DNA of 64,000 nt from Dehalococcoidia bacterium (lineage in GTDB: Bacteria; Chloroflexota; Dehalococcoidia; JAUSIH01): positions 1,370 to 65,369 of the forward strand of contig JAUSIH010000046.1 of NCBI GenBank assembly GCA_030648205.1, given 5' to 3'. Position numbers and translations under genes: made by a program. The number at the start of each line of letters is the position of its first letter. The first letter of the stretch is position 1. This document shows positions 2,209 through 57,770 of this stretch, piece by piece. The notes below the pieces were generated by a model. It saw nothing but the letters and a program-made list of their open reading frames with translations. It ran no database searches and was not told the origin of the DNA.

Positions 2209-2465
2209 TGTCTCGTCCCTGAAATCTGTGTACAAATTGTCATTGCGAGGACTCCGGCTTGCCGGAGGACGAAGCAATCTGGAGGGGGGTGTACTCCGCA
2301 ACCAGATTGCCACGCCCCGATTTCGTCGGTGCTCGCAATGACATTAGCAACGAACTTCGGGGACGCCACACAGCGGGCTTGCCCGGAAAGCCGGTTGCTG
2401 CTACCGTGTGGCTGCCGGAACTCCAAGCCCTCCGCGCAGTCGCAGAGGGCGCATAAGGGGGTGTC

Positions 2466-3482
2466 ATGCGTCCTCAGTTCGGCATCGTCTTTACGCCCGC
2501 ACCTCACGCGGACCTTGTGCGCTGGGCCACGCTCGCCGAGGAGGGCGGCTTCGAGCGGCTGGGCATAGCGGACAGCCCGTCGCTGTACCGGGACGCGTAC
2601 GCGCTGATGGCCGTCATCCTGGCCAAAACGACCCGCATCCACGTCGGGCCGCGCGTGACGAACCCCGTGCTCGTCCACCCCGGCGTCATGGCGAGCACGC
2701 TGGCCTCGCTGTCAGAGCTGTCTGGAGGCCGCGTGTACATGGGCATAGGCACGGGCCACAGCGCGCTCCTGAACGTGGGGTTGAAGCCCGCCAGCCTGGG
2801 CACGCTCCGGAGCTTTGTCCTGGCGGTGCGCTCGCTCCTGACCACGGGCGAGGCGGAATGGCAGGGCAAACATGCGCGGATGACCTGGCGGGCGGACCAG
2901 CCCGTGCCCATCTACGTGGCCGCGGGCGGGCCGAAGTCGCTGGAGATGGCGGGCGAGATCGGGGACGGGGTGATCATCGGCAACGGCATGACGCCTGAGG
3001 TCGTCGCGCACGACATGGCGTGCATCGAGCGCGGCGCGCGGACGTCGGGGCGCGCGCTGCGTGACCTGCACTTGCAGTGGCTGATGGCGGCGTGCGTCGC
3101 CGACGACCCGGAGCAGGCCGGCCGCGAGGCGCGGGCGCAGATGTGCTCCAACGCCCACAGCGTGTTCCAGCACGGGATCGAGGGACAGTTCGTGCCCGCG
3201 CCATTGAAAGAGCGCGTCCAGGCGCTCTCGGATGGGTACATGGTCACCGAGCACGCACGCCCGGGGGAGTCCGCGCACAACGCTCAGCTTGTGGACGAGC
3301 TGGGGCTGCGCGAGTACCTGATAGACCGGTTTGGAATCGTCGGCTCGCCGGAGCGGTGCGTGGAGCGCATCAAGGAGTTGCAGCACCGGGGAATCAACGC
3401 GTTCTGGATGAGCGTGCACACCACGGAGAAGGAGAGGGTTATCCGGCTTCTGTCGGAGAAGGTGCTGCCGCACTTCCTGTAG
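2466..3482 (+). CDS. LLM-class (luciferase-like) F420/flavin-dependent oxidoreductase, paralog 1
   Basis: 338-aa TIM-barrel LLM signature (GIADSPSLYRD, GIGTGHSA, GGPKSLEMAGEIGDGVIIG). This is the same family as the genes at 6603-7664 and 14329-15369. Confidence 0.8.
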   Translation: MRPQFGIVFTPAPHADLVRWATLAEEGGFERLGIADSPSLYRDAYALMAVILAKTTRIHVGPRVTNPVLVHPGVMASTLASLSELSGGRVYMGIGTGHSALLNVGLKPASLGTLRSFVLAVRSLLTTGEAEWQGKHARMTWRADQPVPIYVAAGGPKSLEMAGEIGDGVIIGNGMTPEVVAHDMACIERGARTSGRALRDLHLQWLMAACVADDPEQAGREARAQMCSNAHSVFQHGIEGQFVPAPLKERVQALSDGYMVTEHARPGESAHNAQLVDELGLREYLIDRFGIVGSPERCVERIKELQHRGINAFWMSVHTTEKERVIRLLSEKVLPHFL

Positions 3483-3610: not shown

Positions 3611-5308
3611 TCAAATCTTGCTAGGCCAAGTCTCGACAGCAAGTTTTGCTAGGCGATTCTGTCGCTCTTTAATTTCCTTAGCGCCCCAAGATGCGCATTG
3701 GGCTGCCTCAATCGTCAGGGTAAACGTAGAATCTTGAAGTACGGGTCCCTTTTCCTTGTACGGGCTATTCCCGATCATAGAGTTTTTCTTCGCTTGCAAA
3801 ATGACCATATTCCCAAGCCGTTTGTAATAGGCGGCGGCGGTTTCACTATCAATATCCGGCCATTCGTTTCCAGGATGTTCAGGCAGAATATGTTCAAGGT
3901 TGATTGCCTGCTCCTCATCTTGCGGAACCCACTCTGGTTCGGGTTCCTTTTTCAGATATAGTTCCATCGCACGTAGGTAGTACCGCGCCAAGTAGACGTG
4001 GGACACTCTCGCTTCCGAAAAGGCAGTCTCAAAGAGCGCATCTGTAGGAACGACATCTGACATTTTAGCCGCCAGTTCCTTCGCCGTCTTGATTTTCCTG
4101 GTTCCAACATCTTGGGCGCGAAGCGCATAGTTCCGGTCAAGAAGTCCACCACGTCCACCAACAATCAAAAATCGTACTGACCAATAGACAAAGAGTCGGA
4201 ACGCATCCTGTGCCTCTTTAATTGAGAAGTAGCGAGCGACAGCGAACATGAGTGGGCGAATCTGCTCTACGCGAAGGTCACGATTGATGGTAGAAATATG
4301 TTTCCGCGTTCTGGTTCCGTATTGGTTCCATTTGGTATGGTCAGAGTTGTACAACGCGGCGTAGTCATTTGCCGCCTCTGCAACCTCACTGAGAAAAGTA
4401 AGCGCGCGGCTCTGGCTATCCACTGTCTGCCGAACCTTGTCAAAGACCTCTTGGCCTCTAGTTGGACCAGTCTTGGTAATCATGAAATGATGCAAGAATA
4501 TGACTGTAACATCATCTTGCCCTAGCGATTCAAGGACACCCACCATCTTTGCCCAATGCTGTTGAGCCTCATTTATGCGATCCCCTGCGTAACTCAACAG
4601 GTGGTTCTTCAGCAAGTCAGCTTGGGATGCTTTGAGACCACGGTCGTTGAGGGTTTCAAACATCATGAAAGCGTTCAAATGATCGGGTACACGGAGCACG
4701 ATGACTTGCGCTCCGGTGCGCACGAACTTAACCCATTCGAGCAACCGCGTTGTTTTCGCGGAGGGAGTATAAGGGTCCAAAATTTTTTGAATGTGCTTGG
4801 CAGCTATTTCACTCGCCAACTTGATACGCTTGTGGGATTCCTTCATGGGGGCAACCCCTCGTACAGGGTCATCAGGATTCGCCAGAATGAAATTCGAGAA
4901 GAACTCGTTATCGTCAACGTTCAAGCGAAGCTTAGGGACAATTGCCGTAGTGTTGATGTCCGTTGTCTTCAGGAAGTCATTCTCAATTGATTGGGCACGG
5001 GCAGCATCCTTATTCCAGTGGAAGTAGTCCCGAATGGCTGCCAAGAGGATCGTAGATGTCGCAAGTCGTTGTTGACCATCCGAAACCTCTGGAACCTCTC
5101 CCGCTCCCTTAGTTAGAACGATGGTTCCGAGAAAATAGCTGGCCTTGTTGTTAGCTATCGCATTCGCAAAGTCTTGGAGAAGGTCAGTGACATGATCTTC
5201 CTCCCATGAGTACTCTCGCTGGTTCAACGGAACGGCAAGGCGGTTGTGGGCCAAGACCTCTCCAATCCCCTTATACTCAAATCCAATTTCTTCCGTCGTA
5301 ATATGCAT
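3611..5308 (-). CDS. DUF262 (ParB-like nuclease, DGQQR motif) / DUF1524 (His-Me finger) fusion: GmrSD-family type IV (modification-dependent) restriction endonuclease-like defence protein
   Basis: The N-terminal region has NQREYSW and DGQQRL motifs. The C-terminal region has EHILP...GNMVIL, the DUF1524 His-Me finger. The gene sits in a ~2.3-kb segment of clearly lower GC than its flanks. Confidence 0.8.
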   Translation of the reverse strand: MHITTEEIGFEYKGIGEVLAHNRLAVPLNQREYSWEEDHVTDLLQDFANAIANNKASYFLGTIVLTKGAGEVPEVSDGQQRLATSTILLAAIRDYFHWNKDAARAQSIENDFLKTTDINTTAIVPKLRLNVDDNEFFSNFILANPDDPVRGVAPMKESHKRIKLASEIAAKHIQKILDPYTPSAKTTRLLEWVKFVRTGAQVIVLRVPDHLNAFMMFETLNDRGLKASQADLLKNHLLSYAGDRINEAQQHWAKMVGVLESLGQDDVTVIFLHHFMITKTGPTRGQEVFDKVRQTVDSQSRALTFLSEVAEAANDYAALYNSDHTKWNQYGTRTRKHISTINRDLRVEQIRPLMFAVARYFSIKEAQDAFRLFVYWSVRFLIVGGRGGLLDRNYALRAQDVGTRKIKTAKELAAKMSDVVPTDALFETAFSEARVSHVYLARYYLRAMELYLKKEPEPEWVPQDEEQAINLEHILPEHPGNEWPDIDSETAAAYYKRLGNMVILQAKKNSMIGNSPYKEKGPVLQDSTFTLTIEAAQCASWGAKEIKERQNRLAKLAVETWPSKI

Positions 5309-26458: not shown

Positions 26459-26533
26459 GCGGGGGTAATTCAGTGGTAGAATGCCACCCCTCCAAGGTGG
26501 ACGTCGCGGGTTCGAATCCCGTCCCCCGCTCCA
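26459..26533 (+). tRNA. tRNA-Gly (anticodon UCC)
   Basis: Manual cloverleaf: acceptor stem GCGGGGG/CCCCCGC, D-arm attc-agtggta-gaat, anticodon arm ccacc-cctccaa-ggtgg (anticodon TCC), T-arm gcggg-ttcgaat-cccgt, discriminator U73 and an encoded CCA. G1-C72, C2-G71, G3-C70 and U73 are Gly identity elements. Confidence 0.8.
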
Positions 26534-26703
26534 GCATGCCTGTTGTCAGCTTCGGTCCCGGGTGCGACATGGTTTCAGGCCTCGTCTTCTTGCATCTCTT
26601 ATCGGACGCGAGTTTTGATTGGCAAGGCTTGGATCGTTTCTTGGGATAGCTGCTTGAGACACTCTCTGGTGGGTCGTACGGCGCTTGAGGAGGGTGCACG
26701 AAC

Positions 26704-26946
26704 ATGGTAAAAACCGCAACGACGAAGCCCCAAGCGAAGTTTACGGCGGTGTTCCTGCGTGACGGCAAGTGGTGGATTGGGTACGCGGAGGAGCTGCCGG
26801 GAGCGAACGCCCAGGGCAAGACGCTTGAGGAGGCCCGCGAGAGCCTGCGCGAGGCCGTCGTCCTGATTCTTGAAGCCAACCGCGAGCTGACGCGCCGCGA
26901 GACCCTTGGAAAGGATGTCCTGAGAGAAGAGCTTTCGGTCGCCTAA
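26704..26946 (+). CDS. HicB-family antitoxin (UPF0150)
   Basis: FTAVFLRDGKWWIGYAEELPGANAQGKTLEEARESLREAVVLILE. Confidence 0.7.
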   Translation: MVKTATTKPQAKFTAVFLRDGKWWIGYAEELPGANAQGKTLEEARESLREAVVLILEANRELTRRETLGKDVLREELSVA

Positions 26947-26947
26947 C

Positions 26948-27133
26948 ATGACGCGCCGCGCCTTGCTTCGCCACCTCCACGGGCATGGTTGCGCGCTACT
27001 CCGCGAGGGCAGGAGACACTCCGTCTATTGGAACCAAGGCGCCCGCAGGACATCCACGGTGCCGCGCCATGTGGAGATATCCGAGAAGATGGTGCAGAAG
27101 ATATGCCAGGACTTGGGGATTCCACGGCCATGA
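26948..27133 (+). CDS. HicA-family toxin (YcfA-like mRNA interferase)
   Basis: MTRRALLRHLHGHGCALLREGRRHSVYWNQGARRTSTVPRHVEISEKMVQKICQDLGI matches the PF07927 pattern (GSH..Y, TVP.H, I..DLG). It starts 1 bp after the hicB stop. Confidence 0.7.
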   Translation: MTRRALLRHLHGHGCALLREGRRHSVYWNQGARRTSTVPRHVEISEKMVQKICQDLGIPRP

Positions 27134-30768: not shown

Positions 30769-31380
30769 ATGGCCGTAGCCACAACCATCCGCATGAAGTC
30801 GCCCGTCGCCAGTGCGCCGGACACCAGGAACCGCCTCGCGCCGCTCGTGGACGACGTGCGCGGCAAGGCAGCCGGTTTCCGCGTCCAGTGGAGCAGCTTC
30901 GACGTGTTCATGAAACGCTTTGAGGAGCTGCTGATGGAGCGCAAGCAGCCGCGGTCCGTCCATATCATGGACCAGAACTGGGAGTCTCCCGCCGTCATCA
31001 AGAAGGGCCTCAAGATGAATTACGCGGACCCGGGCTGGGCCAAAGAGTGGGACGAGTTCGCCAAGAACGCGGACTGGGCGGTGGTTGGGTTGGCGGCCTG
31101 AGGCGGCTGCACCTCGTGGAGTATCCACGACACGGTCGAAGCCCAGAAGCGCGGCATCCCGACTGTGACCATCGTCACCGAGCAGTTCGTCAGCCTCGCC
31201 AAGAGCGTCGCGAAGTCCATGGGCTATCCCGACCTGCCGATGGTGGTCGTCCCGCACCCGTTCGAGACCCTTTCTCACGACACGATCCGCAAGATCGCGG
31301 AAGAGAAGTACGACGAGATTCTCTCCAAGGTGCAGAAGGCCAAGGAAGTGCGCGTGCCCGCCCAGGGCGCGGCCTCGTAG
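30769..31380 (+). CDS. putative selenoprotein with a UxxC redox motif (UGSC-family-like); in-frame TGA at 31099-31101 read as Sec
   Basis: ORFs 30769-31101 and 31165-31380 are in the same frame, joined only by the TGA. The joined product reads ...WAVVGLAA-U-GGCTSWSIHDTVEAQKRGIPTVTIVTEQ.... A hairpin tcgtgga-gta-tccacga begins 13 nt after the TGA. Confidence 0.6.
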
Positions 31381-31390
31381 CTCGAACGTC

Positions 31391-32452
31391 ATGACTACTG
31401 AGTACATCGAGGTCGAAAACGACATAGACAAGGCGTTTCAGGCCGCGTACGAGCAGGGCTGGACGGACGGTCTGCCCGTCATTCCGCCCACGGAGCAGCG
31501 CGTGGCGGCCATGCTGGCGACGGTGGACCGTAAGCCGAGCGACGTCATCGGCCTGCTACCGCCCCGGAACGGGCAGGCTATCGTCGAGAAGGTGGCGGTC
31601 AGCGCGGTCATGGCGGGATGTCTGCCGTCCTATTTCCCCGTGGTGGTGGCGGCCATCGAAGCCGCCGCCGACCCCGCGGTCTATCTGCGCGGCATCAACT
31701 CCACCACGAACCCGGTGGCGCCTTTGCTGATCATCAACGGGCCTATCCGCAAGGAGATTGAGGTCAACTGTAGCTGGAGCGTGATGGGGCCGGGGCCACG
31801 CGCCAACGCCACCATCGGGCGCGCGTTCAGCCTGTGCATGATCAACATCGCGGGGCGCATCCCCGGCGAGGTCACGAAGTCCACGCACGCATCGCCGGGG
31901 CGCTACACGTGGTGCATCGGCGAGTACGAGGAGAAAAGCCCGTGGGAGCCGCTGCACGTGGAGCGCGGCTTCAAGAAGGAGGACAGCACAGTCACGCTGC
32001 TCGCTCCGACGGGCCACATCAACGCGCTGGACATGCTGGGCCAGACCGGCGACGAAATCCTGACCATGATCACGTCGTGCCTCAGCCTGATGGCGAGCAA
32101 CAACTTCTTCAACCGCTACGGCGAGGGCGACATGGGCGTCATCCTCTGCCCGGCGCACGCGGACATCATCAAACGCGACATCGGCGGCAAGCAGAAGGCG
32201 AAGGAAGCGCTGCTGGAGAAGACGAGCCGATGGATTCGGATGGCGGACATTCCGCCGCATCTCAAGGCGGCCGTTGAAGGGCTGAACCCTGGCTCGAAGC
32301 AGATCGAGGGCGAGTTCGCCCGGCTGGCGGCCCGCGCCGACCAGTTCGTGCTGGTGGTCGCGGGCGGCCTCGGCGGGTATCACTCCGTGGCGCTGCCCAC
32401 GTTCGGCGGGCCGCAGACCATCACGTGGGCCATCAAGGCGAAGAAGCGGTAG
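31391..32452 (+). CDS. conserved hypothetical protein (353 aa), probably co-transcribed with the upstream UxxC selenoprotein; its 3' end is duplicated ~1.2 kb downstream
   Basis: The ATG lies 11 bp after the selenoprotein stop. No confident family assignment from sequence. The C-terminal ...ARLAARADQFVLVVAGGLGGYHSVALPTFGGPQTITWAIKAKKR is duplicated at 33492-33638. Confidence 0.55.
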   Translation: MTTEYIEVENDIDKAFQAAYEQGWTDGLPVIPPTEQRVAAMLATVDRKPSDVIGLLPPRNGQAIVEKVAVSAVMAGCLPSYFPVVVAAIEAAADPAVYLRGINSTTNPVAPLLIINGPIRKEIEVNCSWSVMGPGPRANATIGRAFSLCMINIAGRIPGEVTKSTHASPGRYTWCIGEYEEKSPWEPLHVERGFKKEDSTVTLLAPTGHINALDMLGQTGDEILTMITSCLSLMASNNFFNRYGEGDMGVILCPAHADIIKRDIGGKQKAKEALLEKTSRWIRMADIPPHLKAAVEGLNPGSKQIEGEFARLAARADQFVLVVAGGLGGYHSVALPTFGGPQTITWAIKAKKR

Positions 32453-32690
32453 GGCCGTCCGGTCAGAGCGGCCTGACTCCAGAGGCGCCAGCACCAAAAC
32501 GGGGTGGCCCGAACTAGAAGGGGCCACCCCGTTTCTCTTTGACATGGCGGAACGATTGCCTATTGGGAGTCGCCTTGCGGCTTGAGGCCCCTGTGGTGGG
32601 TTCTCTGGACAGCACTCGAACCTGCTACGGCCTGACCTTGTGCCGCAGGCTGAGGCGACTGCTAAACATGAAGTAAGAGCTCACGCACCG
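32302..32690. repeat. direct repeat copy A (~380 bp): the 3' end of gene 31391-32452 plus ~240 bp downstream
   Basis: ggctggcggcccgcgccgaccagttcgtgct...aaggcgaagaagcggtag...ggtcagagcggcctgactccaga[g]gcgccagcaccaaaacgggg... is repeated at 33492-33850 at ~85-90% identity. Confidence 0.7.
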
Positions 32691-32740
32691 TGGCGTTGAT
32701 GCAACGGCCTACCATGTGGTTGCCACGCGCCGACAGCCCT

Positions 32741-33208
32741 CTACGCCAGTTGCAGTCCGAGAAAATACGTTCGGTAGTACCCACGGTCTCTGGTCAGCAG
32801 TCGGTCAGCATGGAGGGTAGCATGGGCACCGATGAGGAAATCGGCCACGACGTGTTGGCGTGGGATGAGATGTGCTCCACACCTCGCGCAGTGAATGTCC
32901 TGTGAAGTTCCACAGGAAGGGCAAACCAGGGAATCTGGCCGCCGGCGCAGGTACTCGCGCCATGCCTTGCCTGCCAGGTAGAGGGCCTCGGTGCCCGAGG
33001 GCTGTAGTCGGATACCGGTATCTTCCAGGAACCGGTCCAGTTCCTCACGAGCGGGGAAATGGGGAGACAGCTCCGCGTAAACGGCTTCGGAGACGACCGT
33101 CGCGCCAGCTCTAAGGGACTCGGTCAGGGCCTGCTCTGAGGCGTCTCCGTGCGGAGCACCAGGGACAAGGACGTCCAGGAGGATGTTCGTGTCCACCGCA
33201 GTGATCAC
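32741..33208 (-). CDS. VapC-family PIN-domain toxin with an inserted CxxC...CxxC zinc-ribbon
   Basis: MITAVDTNILLDVL (PIN acidic residues) and a C-terminal ...DFLIGAHA. The inserted segment is CPSCGTSQDIHCARCG. It overlaps vapB by 4 bp. Confidence 0.7.
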   Translation of the reverse strand: MITAVDTNILLDVLVPGAPHGDASEQALTESLRAGATVVSEAVYAELSPHFPAREELDRFLEDTGIRLQPSGTEALYLAGKAWREYLRRRPDSLVCPSCGTSQDIHCARCGAHLIPRQHVVADFLIGAHATLHADRLLTRDRGYYRTYFLGLQLA

Positions 33209-33444
33209 TGCCCGCGCATCTCCTTGACAAGCTCGTCGGGATCCTGCTCCGTCAGGTTTTTCAGGTAGCCCCTATACTTTTTGAGCGGAGCGGGAGGGAG
33301 GCGCTTCCTGAGGCGGAACACGCCATCTTCCTCCATGAATTCCAGTTTGTCTCCTGGCCGGAGCCCCATGCGCTCGCGGACCTCTTTGGGGATGGTCACC
33401 TGTCCTTTGGTGGTAATCCTCGTCATAGCCATGTCTGCCCTCAC
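33205..33444 (-). CDS. AbrB/MazE/SpoVT-family antitoxin (VapB-like)
   Basis: RITTKGQVTIPKEVRERMGLRPGDKLEFMEEDGVFRLRK matches the swapped-hairpin beta-barrel signature. Confidence 0.7.
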   Translation of the reverse strand: MRADMAMTRITTKGQVTIPKEVRERMGLRPGDKLEFMEEDGVFRLRKRLPPAPLKKYRGYLKNLTEQDPDELVKEMRGQ

Positions 33445-33491
33445 GGTAAGGAATTAATTCCTTACTCTATTGTAAGGGAAGGCGCGCATTG

Positions 33492-33850
33492 ATGCAACTG
33501 GCATCGAGGCTGGCGGCCCGCGCCGACCAGTTCGTGCTCGTGGTCGCGGGCGGCCTCGGCGGGTATCACTCCGTGGCGCTGCCGACGTTCGGCGGGCCGC
33601 AGACCATCACGCGGGTGATCAAGGCGAAGAAGCGGTAGTGCCATCTGGTCAGAGCGGCCTGACTCCAGAGTCGCCAGCACCAAAACGGGGGGCCTATTTA
33701 GCTTAGGCCGCCCCGTTTCTCGTTGCCGTGTCGGAAAGATTGGCTATTGGGAATCGCCTCGCGGCTCGAGTCCCCTGTGGTGGGCGTCAGGGGACAGTGC
33801 TCGAACTTTCTGCAGTCTGAGTTGGCGGCTGGGGGCGGCTGCTGGCTACA
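33492..33850. repeat. direct repeat copy B (~360 bp), a diverged duplicate of 32302-32690 that includes a 3' fragment of gene 31391-32452
   Basis: It encodes ...QLASRLAARADQFVLVVAGGLGGYHSVALPTFGGPQTITRVIKAKKR* in the + frame. It carries a 13-bp deletion relative to copy A and ends 2 bp before the stop of the low-GC gene at 33853. Confidence 0.7.
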
Positions 33851-33852
33851 TC

Positions 33853-35130
33853 CTACGGCACAGGCTTCATTCGGAGTCGGCTGTCGATATTTCTCACACC
33901 GCAGGCAATCTGATCACATAGCCATTCTAGACTCAAGAACTCAGCGAACAATCTGCCAAAGAACCCGCGACTAACTCTGCAGTCCGTTTCCTTCGATCCA
34001 GACATTTGCCAACCAAGATTGCGTAGTCTCAGTACACAATTGTCTTCATCTAGCAGCTCCGCCGATAATCCTAGGGAGTTGAACCGCTCCTCAAGTACCT
34101 TGGTGTCAACGACGATCGCGATAAACAGTTTCCCAAGGTAGAACTCCCACAGTGCGTCCAGATTGTGGATGGACAACGTGAAAGGATAGTAGGCGGAATT
34201 CTGCCATTTGAAATCGTTAACAATTGCCAGCATTGGCTGCCCCTTACACCTCTGTCTGACCGAGGCCATCCAATCCAGTCTGGATTCGCACATCACCACA
34301 TAGAAAAGGCCCTTTTCCACTTCTTCCCAGTTAAGGCCACATTCCTTAGCCCGTCGAATGATACCGTCTAGCCTCTTTCTATGGTTCACCTCTTCGCTAC
34401 ACACGGCGAATCTATTGAACTCGCCGTGTATTCCATATAGGTCGTGTGTCACGTCGGTCTTCAAGTAGTCCACTACTCTCTTGATATTTGCAGACTGCCT
34501 CCTTGCTCTCTGGTTCCTATGCGTTCCTGACTTCACTTCAACAATGGCGAACAGCTTGTCTCCTTGCCCCGCAGTGATGTCGCCATAACGGAGGCAATGA
34601 GTGACGTCATTCAATATGCCAACGCCACCCAGCTTAAATATCTTTTGCAATACACGCCATTCTTTTCGCAAGCCGGCCTTCCCGGATACGAAACCAGATG
34701 CCTCCTTAAAACGCATAGGCTTGATGTCGTACTTGTCGCCATATGTGAACGCGAGGGCGTCTCCGATATCCTTCAGAATATGCAGCACTCGCTTGTACCC
34801 TTCTAGCTTGCTGCTTCGAGCTTTGATAGCGCTCTTGATCTGACGCTGGTGGATTCTGTCTGCGTCCGAACCTGCGTATCCACTCAAGACCGCCTTGGCA
34901 CTCTTGATCTGTAATCTGGTGACGCGTATCTGAGTTTCGACATGCTTGATTCTTTCCAAGAGCGTTCTCTGCAAACTCAGGCATGTTATTCTCGCCGATG
35001 ATGGGTCCGCATTTAGACGATGGACGAGAGCCATCATATCCATCACCGACCGTTTGTAACGACTCACAATTGGGGGCAGAGATGAGACTAAGTCGCGTTC
35101 GCGCCGTCTATCCCCTACTGCTTGGATCAT
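33853..35130 (-). CDS. hypothetical protein (425 aa) with an N-terminal coiled coil and a putative PD-(D/E)xK nuclease motif; encoded in a low-GC (~47%) insertion
   Basis: YGDITAGQGDKLFAIVEVKSG fits the D...(D/E)xK restriction-endonuclease-fold core. Composition (K/I/N-rich) and GC differ sharply from the ~68% GC flanks. The N-terminal start is uncertain (alternative M30). Confidence 0.5.
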   Translation of the reverse strand: MIQAVGDRRRERDLVSSLPPIVSRYKRSVMDMMALVHRLNADPSSARITCLSLQRTLLERIKHVETQIRVTRLQIKSAKAVLSGYAGSDADRIHQRQIKSAIKARSSKLEGYKRVLHILKDIGDALAFTYGDKYDIKPMRFKEASGFVSGKAGLRKEWRVLQKIFKLGGVGILNDVTHCLRYGDITAGQGDKLFAIVEVKSGTHRNQRARRQSANIKRVVDYLKTDVTHDLYGIHGEFNRFAVCSEEVNHRKRLDGIIRRAKECGLNWEEVEKGLFYVVMCESRLDWMASVRQRCKGQPMLAIVNDFKWQNSAYYPFTLSIHNLDALWEFYLGKLFIAIVVDTKVLEERFNSLGLSAELLDEDNCVLRLRNLGWQMSGSKETDCRVSRGFFGRLFAEFLSLEWLCDQIACGVRNIDSRLRMKPVP

Positions 35131-35338
35131 CGTCTCTCTGCCTAGGTGCGGTGTTGCAATAATCCTTCACATTATGGGCGTTGTGATTCTCAACTGCTAC
35201 GACTGCCCTCGGAAGCATCCGCCCCGCGCCAATTCTAGCCCTGCAGAGCCTGCCCCGTCCACCGCCAACGCATGTTAGAGCGCGGTGCCTCACTATCGGT
35301 GTTTCACGCCCGCCCGGACGTCGCGCTGCTCGTCCGCG

Positions 35339-35581
35339 CTAAGGGCCGGAGCGTGGATCGGGCCGTCGCCCGTGGCTTTGGTCAGTCCTTCGATGGCTGC
35401 TACTCAGAATGCCGAGAAGGGGAGAGCCGGTCCCGACCAGGAACCCGAAGTCATACCAGTTGCCGCTTCTGGCGACGCTGTACAGAGGAAACTCGCCCCA
35501 GCCGCCGAAGACGTGGACGATGAGGACGATCCAGGCCGTGAGGCCGTTCCAGAGTCCCCACAGGACGTCTTGCCACCACAT
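35339..35581 (-). CDS. possible small membrane protein (80 aa)
   Basis: MWWQDVLWGLWNGLTAWIVLIVHVFGGW: one hydrophobic helix. It lies downstream of the cytochrome c gene on the same strand. Weak support. Confidence 0.3.
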   Translation of the reverse strand: MWWQDVLWGLWNGLTAWIVLIVHVFGGWGEFPLYSVARSGNWYDFGFLVGTGSPLLGILSSSHRRTDQSHGRRPDPRSGP

Positions 35582-35674
35582 GATGCTCCTCTCCTTCCGA
35601 TGGAATCAGGACATCCACTTCGCCAACTTTGTAGAACCAAACAGCGGGTCTTCGCGTTTGGCGCGCCCGCGCCT

Positions 35675-36112
35675 CTACCGCATCCCGCCGAAGCCCGTGA
35701 CCGTCACGCGCGTCTGGAAGTCGCGCTGGTCGTCCGTCCACAGGGTCTTCAGATAGCCTATGACCTGGCGCACCTCGTTCGGCGAGAGGCCGTCCCGCCA
35801 CGAGGGCATCCCCGCCGCTGTCCCGCGCGTGATGGTGCGGAACAGGTTGTCGTCCGTGTGCTCGTAGGCGTGGCCGGTCGCGTTCAGCGGCGGGCCGATC
35901 AGACCGCGTCCCTCGACGCCGTGGCATATCTGGCAGCGCTCCACGAAAACCAACTGTCCCGCTGAGGGCGCTTCCGGAGCGGAGGGGGCCATCGCCTGGG
36001 CGGGCGCGGCGCAGCCCGACAGCAGGAGCAGGGCGAGGGCCGCGCCCCTTCCACGGAAGGGCCAGGTCGTGGCGCTAGGCCGCCGGGCCGGACTGCACGG
36101 ACGCGGGGACAT
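35675..36112 (-). CDS. c-type cytochrome (class I, single CxxCH) lipoprotein
   Basis: Lipobox LLLSGCAAP and haem-binding CQICHG...GMPSW (distal Met). The start overlaps the upstream rSAM gene by 37 bp, so the true start may be later. Confidence 0.75.
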   Translation of the reverse strand: MSPRPCSPARRPSATTWPFRGRGAALALLLLSGCAAPAQAMAPSAPEAPSAGQLVFVERCQICHGVEGRGLIGPPLNATGHAYEHTDDNLFRTITRGTAAGMPSWRDGLSPNEVRQVIGYLKTLWTDDQRDFQTRVTVTGFGGMR

Positions 36113-44308: not shown

Positions 44309-45292
44309 TTACACGATCGCCCGGGGCGCTTCGGCAGCCGTGGGCTTCTTCCGGCCCTCTCGAATCGTGTAAACCTGGGCCGCCACCCCCAGCAGGAGGA
44401 CCGCTGCGAAGGTTACGTAGACCTGGGGCGTGAGCTCCAGCAGGTCCTTTTGCTTGTTCATCTGCGTGTGGATGAAGAGGAAGAGCGCCAGCGCAAAGGG
44501 AATCCCCCAGACAAGCAGGTTTCTTCGCATAATCTCCTGGCCGGTGCTCTTGGGCAATGGAAGGAGCTCGGCAAACACGCGCTGCACCGCCATTGCGAAG
44601 GCTACAAGGCACCAGTCCTGAATCCAGGAGGTTAAGCCCTGTGCCGTACGGAAGAATCCCTGCGCCCACTGCTGTTGGCTGACAATGGGCAAGACAAAGG
44701 CCACTCCCCACGCCGCCGTTCCCAGACCGGCGACTGACACCAGACTGACCACGTCGAGAGTCAGTTTCTGCTTCGACGTAGGTCCTTGTTCCGGCATCGC
44801 CAACCCGCCCAGCTTCCCGAGCATCAGTCCGGGAGTGAAAGAAAACAGTCGAGATATCGCGACGGAGACGAAAGCGACGGCTATCTGCCCCGGGTAGAGC
44901 GCGACTTTAGCGGCCATCTTCATTCGTCGCGCGGCGAATGAACGGATCCACGGCTCGTATAAAGCGAAAAAACCGGTGGTCAGGCTGAGAGTCAGGAAAA
45001 TCGTCAGCCCCCCGGGACCGAACAGGCCGGCGCCACTGGATAGGAACGAATAAAGAAGTCCGAAGAGAAACATCATCAGTACCGCGCGGGTGAAACGCGC
45101 ACCGGATATCCAGGATATTGCCCGGCCTTCCAGTCCTCTCCAGCCAGCTACTTGCACCACCGCCCGCGCGACGCGGTCCACGTGACCGACCAGGTGCGTT
45201 TCTCTCTTCTTGACGAAGGTATTGGCAAATCCTGAGAACACGCTGATCAGATATGTTATCAATGCCGCCAGGAACACATTGCTTCCCACCAC
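44309..45292 (-). CDS. polytopic integral membrane protein, function unknown
   Basis: 327 aa with ~8 hydrophobic segments and moderately lower GC. Confidence 0.5.
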   Translation of the reverse strand: MVGSNVFLAALITYLISVFSGFANTFVKKRETHLVGHVDRVARAVVQVAGWRGLEGRAISWISGARFTRAVLMMFLFGLLYSFLSSGAGLFGPGGLTIFLTLSLTTGFFALYEPWIRSFAARRMKMAAKVALYPGQIAVAFVSVAISRLFSFTPGLMLGKLGGLAMPEQGPTSKQKLTLDVVSLVSVAGLGTAAWGVAFVLPIVSQQQWAQGFFRTAQGLTSWIQDWCLVAFAMAVQRVFAELLPLPKSTGQEIMRRNLLVWGIPFALALFLFIHTQMNKQKDLLELTPQVYVTFAAVLLLGVAAQVYTIREGRKKPTAAEAPRAIV

Positions 45293-45424
45293 TTTCCAGT
45301 CCGTGGATACCTCTCGCGGCGTCGGGATAGTCTTGAAATACTCCGTGGTGTGGGGAAGGCTTGGCGGCGCCTCCGCAGGCTGGACGCCGCTGACACCCGT
45401 TTGTTGAGTGACAACGTCTGTTGC

Positions 45425-46642
45425 CTACGTGAAAGTCAGCCGCCCCGGCTCCGAGCTTACGGAAAGAAATGGCGGCGGCGTCTGACTACCGGCGCCCATG
45501 CGTTCAACAAGAGCCTGCGACACTTGGGCTGGGTTCACATCCAGCGGCATACCCCTGATGTCCAGGCGACCGTCCACCGCCGATACGGTTGCCACGACAG
45601 TCAGGTCCCCTGTCTCCACCTTCACGGCATTTCCCGCCAGGATGTGGATTTTCGTGCCGGGTGGGAACGGTGGCGGCAGATTGCTCCCGATATCGCGGTC
45701 CGTCAAGACGAACGTCTTGCTGCCGGGGACCGTTGTTTTGGCTTCGACGGCAGCGGCCGTCTGCGGCTGCGAAGGGCGGGAAGCGAAGGCGCGAAGCTGA
45801 GCAGTATCGCTGCGCTCGCCGACAAGATAGGGTATGTCGCCGGAGCGTACTTCGCGGAAGCCTATCACGCCCACACTGATTGGGCCCGACGCGCCGTCGA
45901 GACGCGGGAGGGTGGCCTCCAGGGAGGACAGGACGTTGAGGACCTCGGACGGCGTGGCCGCGCCAGACGCCAGGGCGGGTATGACCACGCCCTGGCGGGA
46001 AGCGAGTTGTGGGATGATCACGGGGGTCAGCGCGGGTCCGCTGGCGGAGACCATCGCAATACGGACGGTACCCTGGCTCACCTCGACACTCGTCTCTCCG
46101 TCATCGCGCACCGCCATGATGAAACTTGTGCTTCCACCGACGACGATCGTCGTCGGCGCCTTCAGCTCGAAGAGAGAATTCCTGGAAGAGGGTGGAGCGA
46201 CTTTGTTGATAACCTCTCCCCGCAGTACCCTGGCTTTCACAACAACGTTCACTTCGTCCGGAGGAGGGGGCGCCGACCCGCGGACCATCGCCAGCATGCG
46301 GGTGAGAACCGCGGGCTTGTTGAGGGTGCGCGTGGATTCCTCGAGGACCATGTCGACCGGGCCGGTAACGCGACTGACAGTTCCATCGGCGTAAAGGAGG
46401 AAAGCATCACCCCCGGCCGGAACGCGCAGCCTCGCGTCTGGGCTCAGCGATGCCAGACTCCCGACGATTTGCTCCTTCTGACCTCCAGGCGTCAGCACGG
46501 AGGCTTTCCCCTGGACGACTCGAAGTGTGGTGGGCACTTCCTCGCGGCTTTCTGTCGGCAGGAGTCCCCACAAGGCAATAATTCCGAGTACGACCGCGCT
46601 CAGGAGCAGGATGTCCGCCAGAGTTCCGACTACTCGTCGCAT
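45425..46642 (-). CDS. membrane-anchored hypothetical protein (single N-terminal TM; beta-rich, FecR-like extracytoplasmic region)
   Basis: N-terminal LADILLLSAVVLGIIALWGLL is followed by Val/Thr/Ser-rich repeats. The opposite-strand ORF is Arg-rich nonsense. Confidence 0.45.
   Translation of the reverse strand: MRRVVGTLADILLLSAVVLGIIALWGLLPTESREEVPTTLRVVQGKASVLTPGGQKEQIVGSLASLSPDARLRVPAGGDAFLLYADGTVSRVTGPVDMVLEESTRTLNKPAVLTRMLAMVRGSAPPPPDEVNVVVKARVLRGEVINKVAPPSSRNSLFELKAPTTIVVGGSTSFIMAVRDDGETSVEVSQGTVRIAMVSASGPALTPVIIPQLASRQGVVIPALASGAATPSEVLNVLSSLEATLPRLDGASGPISVGVIGFREVRSGDIPYLVGERSDTAQLRAFASRPSQPQTAAAVEAKTTVPGSKTFVLTDRDIGSNLPPPFPPGTKIHILAGNAVKVETGDLTVVATVSAVDGRLDIRGMPLDVNPAQVSQALVERMGAGSQTPPPFLSVSSEPGRLTFT

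Positions 46643-56112: not shown

Positions 56113-57770
<1,658 letters not shown>

Follow-up and report, generated by a model that had tools for sequence, protein, structure and literature searches.

How does a small toxin–antitoxin (TA) operon that carries no mobility gene of its own come to lie between two copies of the end of a neighbouring gene? The movement of such chromosomal TA pairs is poorly understood, and the question is raised by a vapBC operon in a 64,000-nt stretch of a Dehalococcoidia genome (assembly GCA_030648205.1, contig JAUSIH010000046.1, positions 1,370 to 65,369 of the forward strand), which was analysed as a whole and is called the window below. The operon follows a gene for a 353-aa protein, and the last part of this gene together with its downstream sequence (copy A) recurs on the other side of the operon (copy B). 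An initial annotation had interpreted this arrangement as an att-like signature, left by an element that integrated site-specifically into the gene.

The reading preferred here, to which a probability of roughly 0.55 is given, is that the repeat arose by recombination of a 1,186-bp cassette-plus-arm unit through a single crossover, without a dedicated integrase encoded in cis. It builds on an insertion whose empty site is preserved in a relative, a composite repeat, a conserved cassette end with microhomology at the joint, the two-lineage origin of the copies, the recurrence of the footprint at other loci and the lack of a recognisable recombinase gene in cis.

Results

The vapBC operon is enclosed by a composite direct repeat

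A direct repeat is present where the initial annotation had placed it. A repeat search paired 32322-32504 with 33508-33690 (183 nt, 95% identity) and 32503-32600 with 33687-33784 (98 nt, 80%), and a blastn comparison of one flank of the operon with the other gave a single alignment between copies A and B (315 columns, 86.7% identity, E=1e-106; coordinates in Table 1). Weak similarity reaches about 32663/33845, so that the repeat is well supported over about 315 bp, or about 343 bp with its weak tail, and the length of about 380 bp originally given was too large. The starts of the two copies are 1,186 bp apart, and two 24-26-nt probes taken from the repeat matched only the A and B sites in the 64 kb (shuffle expectation 0.00).

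The left edge of the repeat is sharp and its right edge fades. A start of copy B at 33492 and a 13-bp deletion within it, as first proposed, were not found: the left edge is at 32322/33508, and what lies at 33492-33507 is the vapBC cassette's conserved left end, which had been mistaken for repeat because it resembles the gene by chance (ATCGAGG...GGCTGGC) and is present in unrelated loci too. The overall identity agrees with the 85-90% of the initial annotation, but it is not uniform, being 96% for the 131 coding nt, 91% for the next 47 nt, 74% for a hairpin, 78% for a spacer and 74% for the distal ~100 nt, with none beyond. In copy A, the stop codon is followed by the 47 nt, the hairpin (32500-32537) and then about 125 nt. 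The repeat is therefore composite, with about 178 nt of recent duplicate (the gene 3' end plus 47 nt; 91-96%) and about 165 nt of older homology (~75%). That it might be a dispersed genomic repeat unrelated to the locus, as the initial annotation had considered, applies to the distal third, which belongs to a dispersed element (E, described below), and not to the proximal two-thirds, which are locus-specific.

Both hairpins fold strongly, with energies of -30 kcal/mol (z=-4.7) on the plus strand and -29.8 kcal/mol on the minus strand for T_A, and of -24.6 and -25.2 kcal/mol, respectively, for T_B, although a simple terminator scan reported no sites. Conservation of the hairpin stems was considered as evidence that the copies had evolved in separate genomes; this argument was dropped, since T_A still has to serve the 353-aa gene and vapC as a terminator, and T_B the 425-aa gene that follows copy B.

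Only vapC and vapB lie between the copies, as initially annotated. The vapC product matched PF01850 PIN (E=7.5e-9; 36.7 bits against a cut-off of 23.6) and has 5,375 homologues, mostly from Chloroflexi and up to 91% identical, which NCBI names VapC family toxin. The G+C content at third codon positions (GC3) of vapC is 0.66, compared with about 0.88 in the neighbouring genes. The vapB product matched PF04014 MazE/AbrB (E=2e-12) and TIGR01439 AbrB (E=2e-15), and its homologues are called as 75 aa, which fits a start at ATG 33432. The vapB stop and the vapC start overlap by 4 nt in the same operon, and a perfect palindrome in the promoter, seen as a self reverse-complement match and conserved in five related cassettes (L007, L009, L010, L013 and L014), is probably a VapB operator of the autoregulatory type. 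With a PIN toxin, an antitoxin encoded upstream and this palindrome, the pair is predicted to be a VapBC-type type II TA system. Among the PLSDB plasmids, there was no meaningful match to the cassette (one 87-nt antitoxin match), and there was none among the INPHARED phages.

The cassette has a defined left end with microhomology to the gene

The vapBC cassette was examined in eight other independent genomic contexts. Cassette homology ends at one and the same position in the window, L009, L013, L014 and L007, despite unrelated flanks. In the window, the joint at 33507/8 connects this left end to gene sequence (...GGCTGGCGGCCCGC), 131 nt ahead of the end of the coding part of the 353-aa gene at its stop codon. 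The first bases of the gene-derived part, GGCTGGC at 33508-33514, form a 7-nt microhomology that is common to the cassette end and to the gene (32322-32328), and the gene sequence itself, CCCGGCTGGCGGCC, is found in copy A and in the relatives.

Relatives preserve an empty site in a cassette hotspot

Relatives of the locus were sought with an exact 26-mer from the repeat, which led to three syntenic metagenome contigs (L003, L004 and L005; ~88% nucleotide identity), all of them without vapBC. In L004, the gene 3' end is followed by one B-type downstream segment and then by a gene for a 446-aa homologue of the 425-aa protein, and window positions 33508-35728 align to this contig at 83%. The empty site that the initial annotation had proposed to look for is thus seen in L004, because a single repeat copy leads there into the homologue of the 425-aa gene with no vapBC between them. 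L003 likewise has a single repeat copy. Syntenic orthologues of the 353-aa gene, at ~88% nucleotide identity, are held by L002 to L005; the closest of them, L002, ends 9 nt past the stop codon and informs on the coding part only. A scan of contigs for the 353-aa protein yielded nothing beyond a 46%-identical paralogue (L001), unusable as an empty site, and look-ups of the exact 353-aa, VapC and 425-aa proteins gave no record.

Other cargo occupies the slot in two of these relatives. In L003, which comes from an 89-kb contig, it is a 326-aa protein whose C-terminal domain matches the PADLOC model of a TIR effector (E=5.6e-14), and in L005 it is a 459-aa DUF2254-like protein, with a match just under the Pfam cut-off. 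Since the relatives have other cargo there, the stretch from the 3' end of the 353-aa gene to about 35320 is a strain-variable cassette hotspot. The window genome has two cassettes in it, vapBC and the low-GC gene for the 425-aa protein (GC 49%, against 65-70% in the surroundings). The 425-aa protein had no Pfam, PADLOC or NCBIfam match; as its slot is taken by the TIR-like effector in L003 and by the DUF2254-like protein in L005, it is possibly the product of an uncharacterised defence gene. Behind each of the two hotspot cassettes come a separate copy of E, a hairpin terminator and the gene-proximal sequence.

A dispersed element marks cassette ends

Element E has a conserved core of about 75 nt, CAGTTGCCTCAGCCTGGGCACCAGGTCAGGCCGCAGAAAGTTCGAGTGCTGTCCACGGAGCCCACC, and its tail resembles a tRNA 3' end. 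By nhmmer, it was found beside vapBC in L006, L009 (on both sides), L013 and L019, between an RHH-PIN pair and vapBC in L010, and three times in L014, in the order E-vapBC-E-RHH/PIN-E, downstream of tRNA-Ala. It also occurs in L004 and L003, which lack vapBC, adjoining their own cargo (the genes for the 446-aa and the TIR-like proteins). The matches cover seven other independent Chloroflexi contexts, and in all of them E has the orientation of the cassette. Downstream of vapC, L006 and L009 have sequence homologous to window 32560-32740. L013 shows an exact fusion between the 5' part of E and the final 17-18 nt of tRNA-Ile, and this tRNA end is repeated three times along an array of tRNA-Ile, an aspartic-protease-like gene and vapBC.

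Arrays in which vapBC, RHH-PIN and aspartic-protease-like cassettes are split by E or by tRNA-Ile 3' ends were observed at L014 2210-4128, L010 2673-3706 and L013 3105-4656; one of them lies directly after tRNA-Ile and another about 2 kb downstream of tRNA-Ala. No recombinase was found within 4-8 kb of these three arrays.

Within copy B, identity to L004 is 93% in the cargo-proximal stretch, 81% in the 5' arm of E and 88% in the E core, whereas E_A is only 48-65% identical to the core and 5' arm of E_B. On the gene side of E, copy B is A-like (80-84%), and its identity to L004 drops to 68% and then to 24%. E is therefore taken as a cassette boundary, as B resembles L004 through the E core and A on the gene side.

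A search of 32200-34000 against Rfam at E<=10 gave two chance-level hits only, and no tRNA, tmRNA or other RNA family for E; ARAGORN predicted no tRNA at any E copy. The consensus fold of ten E cores had an energy of -0.33 kcal/mol with no compensatory pairs. E was accordingly rejected as a structured RNA or attC-like hairpin, there being neither a consensus structure nor compensatory pairs, and as a functional tRNA, the T-arm pairing not being kept. Only the copies at the window locus can close the long hairpin seen in E_A. Since Rfam and ARAGORN matches, conserved structure and compensatory changes are all lacking, E looks like a DNA site recognised at the sequence level rather than an RNA or an attC-type hairpin.

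Most polarised differences between the copies are derived in copy A

The differences between A and B were polarised with the relatives as outgroups, which was possible at 13 sites. The derived state was in A at 12 of them and in B at one; all five coding differences were derived in A, and between the hairpin and E seven were derived in A, one in B and four were ambiguous. Across its 1,062 nt, the window gene has 107 sites with private states, of which 8-9 fall in the last 131 nt of A, and only four of these are shared by B. Copy A has evolved about as fast as the remainder of the resident gene. These four coding states and the 47-nt post-stop segment are common to A and B and were seen in no relative.

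One coding difference alters a conserved position. At residue 346, where R or K is found in nearly all of the homologues listed, the gene end in use encodes W, followed by A347 (32426-32431). R-V is kept at these two residues by the displaced copy B and by the closest orthologues, and copy B retains the stretch TITRVIKAKKR, which matches the 91%-identical orthologue and the family consensus.

With 12 of 13 changes on A, and A changing at the rate of the resident gene, the copies appear to come from two lineages. A local duplication followed by decay is unlikely, because a non-functional B should have drifted at least as much as A, and it has not. Tentatively, A would continue the resident gene, and B would have come from a 'cousin' lineage. 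This reverses the initial view of A as the imported copy, since B keeps the state of the relatives at 12 of 13 sites and is the better candidate, at low power. Nor does the divergence simply measure the age of the event, as had been suggested, for 12 of 13 differences are derived in one copy and two lineages are involved.

The same footprint is found at other loci

A homologous vapBC cassette, 85% identical at the nucleotide level, is bracketed by a 112-nt repeat in two independent assemblies (L007 and L008). The repeat (87.5% identity, with a 77-nt core at 97%; 5071-5180 and 5989-6100 in L007) is made of the final ~108 nt of a convergent CoA-transferase gene. Next to vapC is the intact gene, and at the cassette left end the displaced copy, with topology and joint as in the window; an 18-nt allele-like patch at the C-terminus distinguishes the two copies.

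A second case concerns a parDE-type pair (PF05016 ParE_toxin, E=4.6e-10, with an RHH antitoxin) at the 3' end of a cytochrome c gene in L003 (7505-8335) and L004 (~2450-3280). It is flanked by imperfect direct repeats of ~68 nt from the end of this gene (87-90% identity), and window 35663-35728 is the corresponding empty site. No recombinase gene was found inside the vapBC inserts of L007/L008 or the parDE inserts of L003/L004.

The targets of homologous vapBC cassettes vary, and include the CoA-transferase gene (L007/L008), tRNA-Ile (L013), a position downstream of tRNA-Ala (L014) and other loci. Therefore, the 3' end of the 353-aa gene is not a fixed att site, as the cassette family duplicates other targets (the CoA-transferase gene end in L007/L008 and the tRNA-Ile end in L013).

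No recognisable recombinase gene accompanies the cassette

The initial annotation had noted that no integrase remains between the repeats, and this was borne out. Beyond them, no integrase, recombinase or transposase was recognised among 47 open reading frames (ORFs) selected across the 64-kb window, six of which had no family match, or in the called genes around nine related vapBC loci.

Other features of the window

The window otherwise looks like ordinary Chloroflexi chromosome, with genes for acVLRF1, NuoE/F/G-like proteins, an SRP54-type GTPase (FtsY/Ffh-like), RNase III, AcrB and an Opp-type ABC transporter. The 353-aa protein belongs to an uncharacterised Chloroflexi/Dehalococcoidia family with 7,767 homologues, several paralogues per genome and no Pfam or NCBIfam assignment. 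Its gene follows a UGSC-family gene, whose product matches PF24696 UGSC in its C-terminal part (E=9.8e-12); the UGSC gene and the ~350-aa gene form a conserved pair that recurs in L007/L008. The in-frame TGA of the UGSC-family gene, in the motif AA-U-GGCT, has caused ORF callers to split the gene in two and is likely to be a selenocysteine codon.

A GmrSD-type (type IV) restriction endonuclease gene at 3611-5308 (minus strand), with a GC3 of 0.53, far below that of its neighbours, is a further acquired defence gene of the window. At 26459-26949, tRNA-Gly(TCC) is followed by a 116-aa ORF of low GC3 without a family match; a repeat of the tRNA-Gly 3' end (26459-26533) was looked for nearby and none was found. 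ORFs of reduced GC3 (0.65-0.72) were also seen at 44309-46642 (minus strand) and 56302-57624 (plus strand), with no or weak family matches (FecR-like).

Table 1. Features of the vapBC locus, in window positions
Feature	Position	Strand	Description
UGSC-family gene	30769..31380	+	Upstream gene; in-frame TGA at 31099-31101 (selenocysteine candidate), the single internal stop in the translation
353-aa gene	31391..32452	+	Repeat copy A starts with its last 131 nt
Repeat copy A	32322..32635		131 coding nt, stop, 47 nt, hairpin T_A, spacer, 3' side of E; joined to the intact gene
Hairpin T_A	32500..32537		Between the convergent 353-aa gene and vapC; terminator-like on both strands
Element E_A (cassette end)	32543..32684	-	Core about 32595-32661, minus strand CAGTCGCC...GTTCGAGTGCTGTCC...CCCACC; nhmmer E=6.8e-32
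vapC	32741..33208	-	155-aa PIN-domain toxin with zinc-ribbon insert
vapB	33205..33444	-	AbrB/MazE-type antitoxin; likely start ATG 33432 (75 aa)
Palindrome	33446..33465		GTAAGGAATTAATTCCTTAC; perfect, 20 bp, followed by a second imperfect copy; vapBC promoter
Cassette left end	33487..33514		Plus strand reads ...CATTGATGCAACTGGCATCGAGGCTGG(CC); joint with gene-derived sequence at 33507/33508
Repeat copy B	33508..33820		Layout as copy A, without the first 931 nt of the gene; displaced partial copy
Hairpin T_B	33686..33721		3' of the 425-aa gene; stem sequence unlike T_A, still folds
Element E_B	33726..33860	-	Core about 33779-33844; belongs to the 425-aa cargo gene; nhmmer E=1.9e-26
425-aa cargo gene	33853..35130	-	Directly right of copy B; second hotspot cassette, common to L004
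Right boundary of strain-variable region	35225..35320		Homology resumes at about 35225 in L003 and about 35320 in L005

Discussion

A proposed single crossover of a cassette-plus-arm unit

In the preferred reading, the inserted unit of 1,186 bp would consist of one repeat copy, the 5' arm of E and vapC-vapB. That the inserted element has its own copy of the gene 3' end, as initially annotated, agrees with the composition of this unit, which includes the 3' end, the terminator hairpin and downstream sequence. The unit would have entered by a single crossover between two homologous segments of about 315 bp from two diverged lineages of the same locus, either as a small circle or in linear form, with homology at one end as its anchor. 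Homologous recombination anywhere in the shared segment, the action of a recombinase encoded elsewhere on the E core, and an exchange at the GGCTGGC microhomology are three possible routes of the crossover. All of them would give an identical final structure, and the models differ only in which copy is foreign. As a result, the gene would keep a complete 3' end and its terminator in copy A, the partial copy B would stay beside the vapB promoter, and the unit would contain no recombinase. The circular or anchored intermediate and the enzyme or pathway of the crossover are inferred.

Several points weigh against the preferred reading. The syntenic relatives are only three and form one tight cluster, and the polarity test comprises 13 sites, with non-coding outgroups that are themselves linked to other cassettes. 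Copy B is tentatively the better candidate for the imported one, at a low power of the test. Neither a donor allele (the gene, D_A, E_A and vapBC without copy B) nor a circular form was found, and the six of 47 window ORFs without a family assignment also have to be considered. The repeats are 87% identical and uneven, compared with usually near-identical ones in published cases (e.g. 417/423). Finally, two independent joints at one cassette end could indicate a site-specific enzyme rather than microhomology joining.

Alternative origins of the repeat

The likeliest alternative, clearly less probable than the preferred reading, gives E the role of attP. According to it, vapBC plus E is a mobile cassette that entered the resident E of the 425-aa cassette by means of a recombinase acting in trans, and the 240 nt of gene-proximal arm in copy B would have been picked up earlier, by aberrant excision at the same locus in a sister strain. 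The conserved ~75-nt E at cassette ends in seven other independent contexts, the stacked E-cassette-E arrays of L014, L010 and L009, and the threefold repeat of the tRNA-Ile end to which the 5' part of E is fused in L013 all argue for such a role. So do the similarity of B to L004, 81-93% on the cargo side up to and including the E core but 68% and then 24% on the gene side, and the contrast between an A that changes at the rate of the resident gene and a foreign-looking B. Against it, no recombinase was identified, the L007/L008 duplication has no E at the vapC end, and the parDE case has no E. E shows neither a conserved hairpin nor compensatory changes, its function in recombination being presumed only, and one illegitimate event would still be required for the 33507/8 joint.

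A broader version, somewhat more speculative still, is that the Chloroflexi possess an undescribed integrase-less cassette system, in which TA and defence cassettes ending in a ~75-nt tRNA-3'-like E are moved by a recombinase supplied in trans. If so, such cassettes would insert into the 3' ends of tRNAs or beside protein genes, on their 3' flank, and stack into arrays, and off-register recombination would produce long duplications of the end of a neighbouring gene, of which the vapBC repeat would be one footprint.

The interpretation of the initial annotation, that an integrase element with a replacement 3' end (A) entered the gene at 32322 and displaced B, and that the integrase was later deleted and vapBC left behind, is unlikely. 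The direct-repeat topology, and an insertion whose empty site is seen in L004, remain from the att-like model. Copy B, moreover, has the consensus R where A has W and the state of the relatives at all five coding differences, and E_A and an 80-nt spacer are contiguous with vapC in other genomes, so that part of A travels with the cassette. No evidence of a classical integrase recombination in the gene was found: the repeat of 315-343 bp is stepwise and has no short, near-identical core, the related cassettes duplicate other genes, so that the gene is not a specific att site and no common target exists, and no integrase was detected in the 64 kb or beside the nine related cassette loci. Between the repeats, there is only an intact 0.85-kb TA operon with defined ends, and the repeat runs about 210 nt past the stop codon, beyond what repair of the gene would need. 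Copy B also has four window-specific changes, where about 9-13 would be expected of a resident gene end.

An event in situ is less probable again. Here, a tandem duplication, or a templated repair downstream of E_A, would have taken place between GGCTGGC microhomologies, with drift or a cargo swap afterwards. It fits the microhomology at the joint and the 47-nt post-stop segment and four coding states that A and B share to the exclusion of the relatives. In contrast, it is A and not the non-functional B that has 12 of the 13 polarised changes, coding ones included, the divergence is stepwise (5%, then about 25%) instead of uniform, and a second event would be required for the exchange of cargo. 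A uniform duplication in situ followed by drift was rejected on the same stepwise identity and the 12:1 polarity count.

An assembly artefact, in which the vapBC and 425-aa haplotypes of the hotspot were concatenated by the assembler, is very improbable: the copies look like alleles of two lineages and the window may, like its relatives, be metagenomic, but the 33507/8 joint lies outside the repeat and has seven shared bases, far below an assembler k-mer, and the independent assemblies L007 and L008 show a like structure elsewhere.

Significance of the locus

The locus offers a clean case, with an occupied site, empty sites and alternative cargo in close relatives, and two further independent TA cassettes have the same footprint. 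The gene end now in use bears W where nearly all listed homologues have either R or K, and the 315-bp repeats are a substrate for the deletion or amplification of vapBC. In several Chloroflexi contigs, element E flags the boundaries of cassettes, and searches for variable defence and TA hotspots in this poorly studied phylum could make use of it.

Comparison with known systems

Integron cassettes are similar in being small, single-function units, many of them TA pairs, with a conserved end of ~75-100 nt, an arrangement in arrays (as in L014) and no recombinase inside. The comparison takes in attC sites, CALIN arrays and the TA cassettes of chromosomal integrons (IntegronFinder paper: PMC4889954). 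E differs from attC in having no imperfect hairpin and no compensatory changes, and its ends do not read RYYYAAC...GTTRRRY; it is like a tRNA 3' end, and in L013 it is fused to a real one. Integron insertion is not known to duplicate hundreds of bases of a neighbouring gene. An intI or attI was found neither in the window nor in the 4-8 kb surrounding L010 and L014.

Homology-facilitated illegitimate recombination was reportedly described in natural transformation by de Vries and Wackernagel and by Prudhomme and colleagues, all in 2002. Like the window locus, it combines one homologous side with a joint at GC-rich microhomology of 3-12 bp (here GGCTGGC), which makes the two compatible and is no proof. 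This process usually deletes recipient DNA, whereas the window has a 315-bp duplication instead, and the same cassette end was used in two independent events, which would not be expected if microhomology were chosen at random.

Genomic islands that tyrosine or serine recombinases integrate at the 3' ends of tRNA, tmRNA or protein genes, a type to which the ssrA-specific islands of Dehalococcoides belong, share with the window locus an insert bracketed by 3'-end repeats (attL/attR), an intact gene and arrays at one site (the tRNA-Ile series of L013). Unlike them, the locus has no recognised integrase, be it in the insert, in the 64 kb or near the related cassettes. With 0.85 kb, the insert is small, while the repeat is over-long and without a sharp identical core, and the targets vary.

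Of the classes described so far, insertion with long target duplication comes closest (Nobusato et al. 2000, Gene 259:99; Furuta, Abe & Kobayashi 2010, PMC2853133). In this class, restriction-modification (R-M) units are inserted with repeats of 46-423 bp, no mobility genes and a mechanism that is unknown, and the repeats often cover the stop codons of neighbouring genes and match a single copy at the empty site (PMC2853133). The defining features are repeats of more than 30 bp that align with the single copy of the empty site, and an insert of less than 20 kb with no mobility gene (PMC2853133). The window locus has this structure, with a 315-bp repeat represented by one copy in L004 and L003 and an insert of vapB and vapC free of mobility genes; both are small addiction-type units between direct repeats. 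A repeat that is unique in the genome also characterises the class; the window repeat has two copies in the 64 kb, and its distal ~100 nt are part of the dispersed E family. As the cargo is a PIN/AbrB pair, that is, a type II TA system and not an R-M system, the locus is an analogue of the class and not a listed member of it. It also differs in that the repeats are 87% identical, stepwise and of two lineages rather than near-identical copies of the recipient target, that part of the repeat is the dispersed element E, and that the host is a member of the Chloroflexi. In the literature, no paper was found that extends the concept of long target duplication to type II TA cassettes.

The kind of insertion footprint is thus itself known and unexplained; what is new is that the arms appear to come from another allele and that a dispersed cassette-end element is present. 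The locus suggests that duplicated arms can derive from the allele of another strain, which points to recombination of a cassette-plus-arm unit rather than to staggered cutting of the target, and it extends the mode of long target duplication beyond R-M systems.

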